Source: Bigelowiella natans CCMP2755
Lineage: Eukaryota; Protista; Cercozoa
Length of the DNA stretch: 40,930 nucleotides
Direction: 5' to 3'
Assembly: GCA_000320545.1 (NCBI GenBank)
Contig: ADNK01002954.1
Location: 1 to 40,930 of the forward strand
The notes under the pieces are model-generated. The model was given only the letters and a program-made list of their open reading frames with translations. It made no database searches and was not told the DNA's origin. Numbering within the stretch: position 1 is the first letter of the stretch; every line of letters starts with the position of its first letter. The position numbers were made by a program, and so were the translations under genes. Below are positions 25,638 through 28,600 of this stretch, piece after piece.

Positions 25638-28600
25638 ATGACCGCTATCGCGAGCTGCTGCCGCGAGATTGAGATTCTCCTAAGGTTTCCATGGAATGAA
25701 TTATCAAACACCTTCATTGCTTAATCGGTTTCGTTGGCTATGAGATAAGGGAAAAAGTGTTTGGACAGGACAGAGCAGAATTCGACCCACCACCCATGTT
25801 TTTTGAACAGGAAGACAATCGAGCGATTGGCTACGCGGCAGCTAGTCCCCAGCGTCAAAGGTGAGCGTGTACACGGATTCCCACACCAAGATCCTCCTCT
25901 TCCCTCCTCCTCCTCCACCTCCTCCTCCTCTTCGTTTTTCTCCTCCCGTTCTCACCGATGGGTGATAATAAAAGAATGGCCGACGATGGTGGTCGAGGTT
26001 CCAAAAAATCCAAAGTGGGCCTCCCCGGCATCTGGCAGAGAGGACAGGTGATGCTTTCCGCACGACACGATTTCATCCTATTTTTCGAACGAGTAACGTG
26101 GTATATTCATCCTCCTCCTCCTCCTCCTCTTCATCATTATCATCATCATCATCATCATCATCATCATCAAAGAGTCATCGGGCTGTCTTGCTAACAAATT
26201 CGCGTTGTTTATTGTCGTCGCAGGCAAGTTGTCACGTGTGCATCTGTGCTCAGAGCGGCGCATCATTTCCGCAAGAGGAAGAACAAAGAAATTGATATGA
26301 CGGGTGAGTAATTGATCATTCATTCAATCTCGCACAAGCGTTGAAACGCCATCCCGTGTCTGAATTATCCCCCCCCCCCCCCCAAGATATAAAATCAGCA
26401 TCAATGGAAGGGCCAGAGAAGCTGGGCCAAACGATAGCACAAGAATTATCCTCCTTGCTTCCGAATGAATGGAGGGTGTCACAAGTTAATGGTTTCTTGA
26501 ACTTCTCCATTCCGAGAGCAGTAGCTGACCTTGCAAACCATGAGGAGGCCAAGCATATTAGCGACAGAAGAGGCTCGATGGAACAGGAGCCATCATCATC
26601 TTTATCGTCCTCGACGCTGTCTGTTTCTCATAGACATCCAGAAGAAGCGACGGTTCTTGAAGAGGGCAACGAGACCAGTAAGGGGGGTGGGAAGGGTGGA
26701 GGCGGAGTAATTTCAATGCGGCCAATAGGGAAGTTTCGCTCATGCTTCAAGGAGAAGTATGGAACGCCTCGTCAGGGTGCAGTTGCCAAGAACACGCGGT
26801 ATTTAGTTACAACATGTAATTAGATAAGGAAAAGAGAGGAAGAGGGTCGGGAGGGGAGGGGAAGGGAGGGCAGTAAACACACGGTGCGATAGGGATGCTT
26901 ATCGTCAGGTTTTACGTTTGAGTGATTTGATGGGTTTTTTACTGACTCGTAATGTTGTCGTTGTAATCTTTTCTTACGATAGCTGTACATGTCTATTCCT
27001 TCTCCTTCTTCTCTCTCTCTCTCTCCCTCCCTCCCTCCCTCTCTCTCTATCTTAACTCTATCTCCCCTCCTTTGTTAAAGAGGCCATGTTCAATTTTATT
27101 CGTGGGTACCTCCGGATTCTCTAGATGGACTGGAGGCCTTTTCCCACGCCTGGCTGGTATTCTGGTTTCATAGGAATACGAACAAGGTGGGTGGGTGGGT
27201 TCAGAGCCAAATAGCAATTATCGCGTTGGAATGAATATGGGATGAAGTGGGGGAAGTAGACGATCAAAGGAAGGACGAGGAGGAGGAGGAGGGGAGGGGG
27301 AAAGGAGGATCCATCAGCGTGATGAGCTCACCTCGCATGAACATTGCAATCACTCTTTGATTCTCCAAACACATGCAGGTCGTGAGCGGAAAAGTGAAGG
27401 CCCCGCGACTGCAAGGGGAGAGCGTTGGCATCTTCGCATCACGATCGCCTCACAGAATCAATCCGATTGGGCAGTCACTCGCAGGTGGTAGCAGGAACCC
27501 ATCGTTCGGAACATGGCACGTGGACACAGAGCCGACCTTACGTTTCTCTCTCTCTCTCTCTCTCTCTCTCTCTCTCTCTCTCTCTTTCTGTGTGTGTGTG
27601 TGTGTGTGTGAGAGAGAGAGAGAGAGAGAGAGAGAGAGAGAGCTAAAGCACAGCTCTGTAAGGCATTTGAATTGTATTAATTTCCACTAGTCTGCCACTT
27701 GCTATCATTTACACCATTCATATATCCAGTGGTGGAGCGAGTTGATAAGAAGGAGAAGAAAGTATTCTTCTCAGGTGCTCCTCCCCCCCTCTCCCCATCC
27801 CAAAACACGCAGCTTGACCGTTGCTGCTGGTTGTTGCCTTCGCACTGAACGATTCTTCCCTATATGTGCTCTTTGTTCTATCAGGAATAGATCTCATCGA
27901 AGGCACGCCGATATTGGACCTGAAGCCTTTACATCCAGGTAGCTGGAAGATAATACTAGTTTCGTAACCTCACTGGCGACGAAAACGACTTCGAAGTCCC
28001 AAAATTAAGCCTTCTCTCCCCTTTTCTCTCTCTCTCTCTCTCTCTCTCTCTCTCTCTATCTCTATCTCCCTTGCCTTCTTTGAATTACGTTCTGAGATAC
28101 ACAATCACTTGTAAAATAAAATAAATATAATATACATCATCCTCCTATTATTTCTCTTCAGCCGAGCTTCCTGACCTTCACACTGTAAGGTTTCCGAGAT
28201 GGATCAAGAAATCTCACAGTACGCATTCGTGATAGTCACTCATCATCGTAGTCAGTGAAACGGTGATCCACTCTTTTACACACACTCACGAACGAAGGCA
28301 TTTACAATTAGGCGTGCTTGAAGTGAAATGGACTGATAGAGCGCTTCTCCAGCTTCAGAACTGCTGTGGCCATAAAAAGGGAGAGACTATCCTTGAGCAT
28401 TTTCAAAACGCTGATCAAGTAATGTAAACGTCATCACATCGTCATGTGTTGTCTTTACCTTTGCTGTTGTGGAGGTGGTAGTGGTGGTGGTGGTGGTGGT
28501 GGCGATTCGCCTCCCCCCTCCTCGCACTGAATATCAAAATTATTCAGGTCCGTGCGGCTGCGTCGCAGAGCATTTCTTTGGATCCTCGCACGCTGAACTC

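Follow-up and report, generated by a model that had tools for sequence, protein, structure and literature searches.

The window, which is the whole stretch of 40,930 nt of Bigelowiella natans DNA that was analysed, contains on its plus strand a gene of 14 exons (25638-29239), whose 477-aa product carries a TrmO-family protein behind an N-terminal domain predicted to adopt the Add1 fold of arginyl-tRNA synthetase (ArgRS). No tRNA genes were found in the window. Arranged head-to-head with the TrmO gene at a distance of about 250 bp, a single long open reading frame (23873-25459, minus strand) encodes an FAD-linked oxidase (PF01565 and PF02913) that is covered by transcript contigs and that we take to be D-lactate dehydrogenase-like. 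On the other side, an uninterrupted frame of 515 aa (29946-31493, minus strand) has a weak DUF5666 match (E 0.0045) and looks like several short beta-rich repeats. An out-of-frame upstream ATG opens a frame at 25571-25672 (plus strand) for a 33-aa peptide rich in Arg, Leu and Ala, which looks like a mitochondrial presequence and whose frame runs past the TrmO start codon; no transcript contig starts before 25588, and none of the splice joints puts this frame in phase with the gene. The features of the fusion gene are as follows.

25638..25684, plus strand: exon 1, start ATG, residues 1-16, first helix of the Add1-like domain
25811..25860, plus strand: exon 2, residues 16-33, Add1-like domain
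25975..26047, plus strand: exon 3, residues 33-57, first strand and loop; site of the ArgRS FGDYQ motif, degenerate here
26224..26303, plus strand: exon 4, residues 57-84, second strand, helix and basic insertion
26387..26798, plus strand: exon 5, residues 84-221, closing helix and hairpin of the Add1-like domain, then the linker and the first part of the TrmO barrel
26491..26505, plus strand: GFLNF, residues 119-123, end of the N-domain in exon 5, aligned with E. coli ArgRS
26518..26715, plus strand: linker rich in Ser, Gly and Glu, about 66 aa long, predicted to be disordered
26716..27938, plus strand: TrmO SAM-binding beta-barrel, starting at Met194 (26716), end of exon 5 and exons 6-9
27081-27186, 27379-27484, 27730-27774, 27885-27938, plus strand: exons 6-9, TrmO barrel
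28162-28218, 28312-28418, 28548-28633, 28767-28905, plus strand: exons 10-13, TrmO C-terminal domain (span 28162..28905)
28581-28598, plus strand: DPRTLN in place of DPRxxY, TrmO C-terminal domain
29168..29239, plus strand: exon 14, the last, with the stop codon

The ATG at 25638 is the first possible start, since an in-frame stop lies at 25572. The transcript set comprised eight runs from eight studies, seven as contigs and one (X21) as raw reads, just 26 in number; the RNA origin of the seven contig runs is assumed and is not on record, but the precise removal of the introns shows them to be cDNA. The GT-AG joints of all 13 introns were present in the transcript contigs. Intron 1 was found joined in four of the eight runs, intron 2 in six, and introns 3, 4 and 5 in seven each, with no alternative joints listed for this region among the eight runs. 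Exons 1-7 run unbroken within one contig (X11 record 2), and another record (X2 record 7) carries all 13 splice joints, so that the N-terminal domain and TrmO are confirmed to be joined in frame in one spliced transcript. The five phase-consistent exons that the initial annotation had read at this locus were thus recovered in phase, with the translation it gave and with their introns joined in transcripts that hold them fused to TrmO; exon 5 does contain, as it had claimed, the Ser/Gly linker and TrmO, together with the end of the N-terminal domain and the start of the barrel. Disorder of the linker is predicted from a pLDDT below 50 across the matching stretch of homolog P0003. In run X20, which is labelled as a second organism, two differences fall in the exon 5 linker (26583 and 26602), and the introns are identical.

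The body of the protein was assigned to TrmO. Pfam TrmO_N matches were obtained on exons 6 and 7, with PF01980 reaching 32.8 bits on exon 7 (cut-off 26.8), and TrmO_C matches on the homologs P0003 and P0004 stayed under the Pfam cut-off; a model of P0003 matched P. aeruginosa TrmO in Foldseek at E 1e-19. By alignment, Gln213, Arg278, Asp309 and Lys320 correspond to Gln25, Arg92, Asp125 and Lys136 of E. coli TrmO, and in the C-terminal domain Asp391 and Arg393 are retained (E. coli Asp194 and Arg196), the Tyr of DPRxxY being Asn396. All six E. coli SAM-binding or activity residues are therefore kept in the aligned window protein; PMC4132733 links these positions of the E. coli enzyme to SAM binding or activity, and the Asp and Arg of DPRxxY are required. 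A class I synthetase catalytic core and a DALR domain are absent, and the remainder of the window protein is TrmO. By sequence the protein is a TrmO with an altered C-terminal motif, and it is predicted to methylate t6A37 with SAM. Compared with E. coli trmO and human TRMO (TrmO/TsaA/YaeB, class VIII SAM methyltransferase, PF01980 and PF18389), the barrel, SAM residues and C-domain Asp and Arg are shared, whereas the window protein adds the N-terminal Add1-like domain and the linker, and has DPRTLN where theirs is DPRxxY.

A search with exon 5 found three longer proteins, one of them named Amorphochlora amoebiformis, and the full-length relative P0003 is 47% identical to the window protein over 369 columns. 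Relatives were drawn from the best 150 of 5582 representatives matching P0003 plus a few others, and were screened by motif and profile; 159 rows minus seven redundant or short ones left 152 TrmO rows. The N-terminal domain is carried by 40 of these, window included (33 recognised by profile and seven by motif or an earlier profile), 20 of which, the window among them, had helped to build the screening profile. Carriers that could be named in 23 cluster look-ups belong to Amorphochlora, Leptophrys vorax and Vitrella brassicaformis, which places the known range of the fusion, by named carriers, in Rhizaria plus one alveolate. The fusion marks a group of eukaryotic TrmOs and is not peculiar to the B. 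natans genome. The fused domain was not seen in 80 prokaryotic stretches sampled from about 2500, nor in nine sampled viral loci. P0012 and P0041 have a hydrophobic N-terminus in place of the domain. In four carriers (P0013, P0155, P0156 and P0157) the Add1-like domain is preceded by some 170-200 further residues, in which a Cys/His pattern is conserved and which may form a zinc-binding domain; Pfam gave no match there on P0013. The initial annotation had known of no description of such a fusion, and a full-text literature search, with most subscription papers outside its scope, likewise gave none; the architecture of TrmO with Add1 is apparently undescribed.

The N-terminal domain, of about 125 aa, is diverged, with 17% average column identity in its family and long insertions in many members. 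Against a profile made from 19 homologs with the window left out, residues 8-127 of the window protein reached 35.6 bits (P 6e-13). On a window-free family profile, exons 1-4 gave 17.5 bits and the exon 5 part 21.4 bits; the signal is beyond chance, since 0 of 2000 shuffles reached the score of either part. Pfam Arg_tRNA_synt_N found no match on the four N-terminal exon pieces of the window, which were scanned separately and not as one spliced piece. Among the homologs, the best PF03485 match was that of P0025 (20.1 bits, E 0.001, profile 2-84 of 85), with P0003 at 13.5 bits and P0017 at 12.9 bits; the gathering score of 21.5 bits was reached by no member scanned, and two of 60 proteins show the family at E up to 1. 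A phmmer search found no match between the window domain and E. coli ArgRS and did not find ArgRS among PDB sequences from P0003 or exon 5, and a word-indexed search with P0003 residues 1-120 returned only itself among 785 candidates. The N-domain profile scored 16.7-17.5 bits on human, Plasmodium and Pyrococcus ArgRS; against the PDB it placed a designed repeat protein and two phage tail sequences ahead of five ArgRS (E 0.045-0.082), a result that is weak alone. hhalign aligned the profile to E. coli ArgRS at a probability of 31% (E 5e-4). In an ESM Atlas search with a score of 0.87 (bar 0.9), all ten family-bearing matches were in the PF03485 family or clan, and whole P0059 fell in a 126-member eukaryotic cluster for which only TrmO families are listed.

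Structure comparison gave a clear result. Residues 1-98 of P0059 were predicted, with no templates used, to fold with a mean pLDDT of 92. In an exhaustive comparison of this domain with 48,161 chains, the top seven were all ArgRS (Z 10.4, 10.2, 9.9, 9.2, 8.4, 7.8 and 6.4; next chain 5.3), the best superposing with an rmsd of 2.2 Å over 91 residues. Foldseek ranked ArgRS alone down to 20 (best E 2.2e-4), the first other row standing at E 0.55. The full-length model of P0003 showed a folded N-domain, a low-confidence linker and a TrmO fold, with a weak ArgRS match in Foldseek (2zue, E 8.9e-3). The profile and structure tests on homologs thus point only to the ArgRS N-terminal (Add1) domain and support the identity that the initial annotation had proposed; the window's own domain is predicted to be a diverged Add1 fold, carried over from the homolog model by profile membership. 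Of the ArgRS motifs, GFLNF is present and its G-F-x-N hairpin aligns with E. coli Gly81-Asn84, whereas the GDYQ part of FGDYQ, with Phe36 and Gln40, is not recognisable in the window protein. Relative to ArgRS Add1 (PF03485), the predicted fold and the terminal hairpin are shared, but here the domain lies below the Pfam cut-off in every member scanned, has a degenerate FGDYQ, and is fused to a modification enzyme without the synthetase catalytic or anticodon-binding domain.

How the fusion arose was approached through trees of the TrmO core, on which carriers cluster far more than shuffled labels do. A quick tree of 152 rows put all 40 carriers on one side of 55 rows (SH-aLRT 97). This side also holds 15 rows without the domain, nine of them too short to tell and two of the other six with a hydrophobic N-terminus instead. 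The 150-row tree needed two changes; a careful 61-row tree needed four, with one carrier clade in 2% of bootstrap trees, and the AU test did not reject a single carrier clade (p 0.21). The largest quick tree recovers a single origin and the other two do not, which leaves that origin neither demonstrated nor rejected. Derivation from a bacterial argS-trmO neighbourhood was considered and set aside: argS lies within 2.5 kb of trmO in three of the 80 prokaryotic loci, all Elusimicrobiota (L081:672-2459, plus strand; L076:3-1292, plus strand; L041:3328-4794, minus strand), the N-termini of those ArgRS scored just 3.5-5.0 bits on the profile that gave 16.7-17.5 bits above, and the carriers sit among eukaryotic TrmOs. 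In L081, the end of argS precedes the trmO match by about 40 bp, both being on one strand; E. coli trmO adjoins proS.

The retained hairpin bears on what the domain may recognise. In E. coli ArgRS, Phe36, Gln40, Ala78 and Asn84 hold A20 of the tRNA, which stacks on Phe82 and hydrogen-bonds with Asn84, and T. thermophilus ArgRS with N79D accepts A20 and G20, as given in the available parts of PMC8975779 and PMC9976931. The accessible text of PMC8975779 adds that diatom ArgRS forms inferred to ignore position 20 are without Asn84, that the position-20 contacts of yeast ArgRS are dispensable, and that the cytosolic tRNA-Arg of B. natans is entered as having A at position 20 (supplement 1, its columns taken from the page layout). 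Phe120 and Asn122 of the window protein align with the A20 contacts Phe82 and Asn84. Gln40 is found in one homolog out of the 19 aligned, although the alignment is poor over this stretch, and FGDYQ is partly retained (G-D/H-aromatic) in several. The aromatic-x-Asn pattern stands in 24 of 29 main-group carrier rows, a partly circular count, as the pattern by which 21 of these rows had initially been selected demands Asn; five of the other eight have it. The last residue of the C-terminal motif is H or N in 24 of the 29 and Y in one. In a subgroup of 11 rows (P0027, P0047, P0081, P0044, P0033, P0045, P0015, P0016, P0040, P0019 and P0158), Asp replaces Asn in ten, and the motif is DPRxxY (eight rows) or DPRxxC. 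The co-change of Asn/Asp and motif counts as a single event because it is confined to this one subgroup, which may be a paralog with another tRNA range.

Based on these features, a mechanism was proposed that has close to an even chance of being correct, in which the Add1 domain would grip the D-loop corner and read A20, and the tethered barrel would methylate t6A37 on tRNA-Arg(UCU/CCU), tRNAs expected to carry t6A37 by the ANN-codon rule. The protein would bind at two points across the flexible linker, Add1 holding the corner of the D-loop and the barrel the anticodon loop. The enzyme would act in the nucleo-cytosolic compartment, because the protein begins with the first helix of the domain and leaves no room for a targeting peptide. 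tRNA-Arg(YCU) has U34 or C34, and under this mechanism G34 would no longer be required, a loss perhaps connected with the change from DPRxxY to DPR(T/S)x(H/N). The determinants of E. coli TrmO are G34 and C31-G39, and the substrate of human TRMO is tRNA-Ser(GCU) (PMC4132733); that characterised TrmOs use G34 tRNAs argues against the shift to tRNA-Arg(UCU/CCU), plausible as it is, that the initial annotation had suggested. The available portions of PMC4132733, PMC7812866, PMC9654439, PMC7694415 and PMC12977680 make no mention of m6t6A on tRNA-Arg. The nearest functional precedent for a tRNA-Arg choice is, by analogy, METTL2-DALRD3, in which the ArgRS-like DALRD3 directs METTL2 to tRNA-Arg(UCU/CCU); there, as in Trm140/METTL6 with seryl-tRNA synthetase (SerRS), the tRNA on which an anticodon-loop methyltransferase acts is chosen by a synthetase or by a reader derived from one (PMC7237682). 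Those are two-protein complexes that make m3C32 and use a DALR anticodon-binding domain or whole SerRS, whereas the window enzyme would be one chain of class VIII with a D-loop-reading domain. The tRNA-Arg reading is favoured by the kept Phe120 and Asn122, A20 in B. natans tRNA-Arg, the motif change and the DALRD3 precedent, and half of the A20 pocket (Phe36 and Gln40), not conserved in the window protein, speaks against it. On the evolutionary side, we tentatively propose, at somewhat less than even probability, that a protist TrmO lineage captured an A20-reading ArgRS domain as a built-in identity reader for m6t6A37 on tRNA-Arg(UCU/CCU), tRNAs for which this mark has not been reported; the subgroup with Asp and DPRxxY would in that case have a second, different tRNA range.

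The main rival to the tRNA-Arg reading, doubtful on balance and still a serious contender, is that Add1 binds the elbow without reading base 20 and raises affinity only, the substrates being G34/I34 tRNA-Thr or tRNA-Ser(GCU). The degenerate FGDYQ, a linker that varies from 11 to 208 aa among carriers, and the DPRxxY kept in the Asp-type subgroup would all fit it, as would the action of every characterised TrmO, in the sources as available, on Thr or Ser tRNAs. However, Asn84 tracks A20 reading among ArgRS, in the available parts of the cited work, and has been retained here although most of the domain drifted, and the C-terminal motif changed in the same rows that retain Asn. That the domain no longer binds tRNA, and makes protein contacts (for example in docking to a synthetase complex) or persists as a tolerated relic, is unlikely: the weak ArgRS sequence match (the best Pfam hit being that of P0025, under the cut-off), the long insertions and the replacement of the domain in at least two relatives agree with such a loss, but fold and hairpin motif are retained across Rhizaria and an alveolate, and the domain always stands upstream of the tRNA enzyme in rows with TrmO sequence. 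A minor rival, which we consider quite improbable, accepts the reading of A20 and makes initiator tRNA-Met the target, this tRNA also having A20 and t6A37. The yeast initiator does have A20 and about one t6A per molecule, but its A20 is hydrogen-bonded to the T-loop and probably not free for a pocket (available text of PMC3950347). Its G31-C39 pair is moreover inverted with respect to the TrmO determinant.

The deposited B. natans model (P0089, jgi Bigna1 43930, 148 aa) begins at Met194 and has no N-domain; it equals the window protein for 64 residues from there and then follows splice sites without transcript support. Its start is what speaks for the hardly credible view that the fusion is a gene-model artefact, with a separate ArgRS fragment upstream of an ordinary TrmO, a view refuted at the transcript level, since both parts lie within individual spliced contigs, share one reading frame in exon 5 and occur together in the proteins of 39 other rows, and since the deposited model leaves the transcript-supported splice sites after those 64 residues.

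In conclusion, a truncated B. natans gene model is corrected by spliced transcripts, and the ArgRS N-terminal domain appears to be reused outside a synthetase, hidden under the Pfam threshold, which holds even without a switch of substrate. Bacterial and human TrmO select their tRNAs in different ways, for which a structural understanding is lacking, and the fusion enzyme allows a direct test. If the switch to tRNA-Arg is real, the enzyme would be a single-chain parallel to METTL2-DALRD3, a tRNA class would be added to those bearing m6t6A, and decoding of AGA and AGG would be tuned in these protists.
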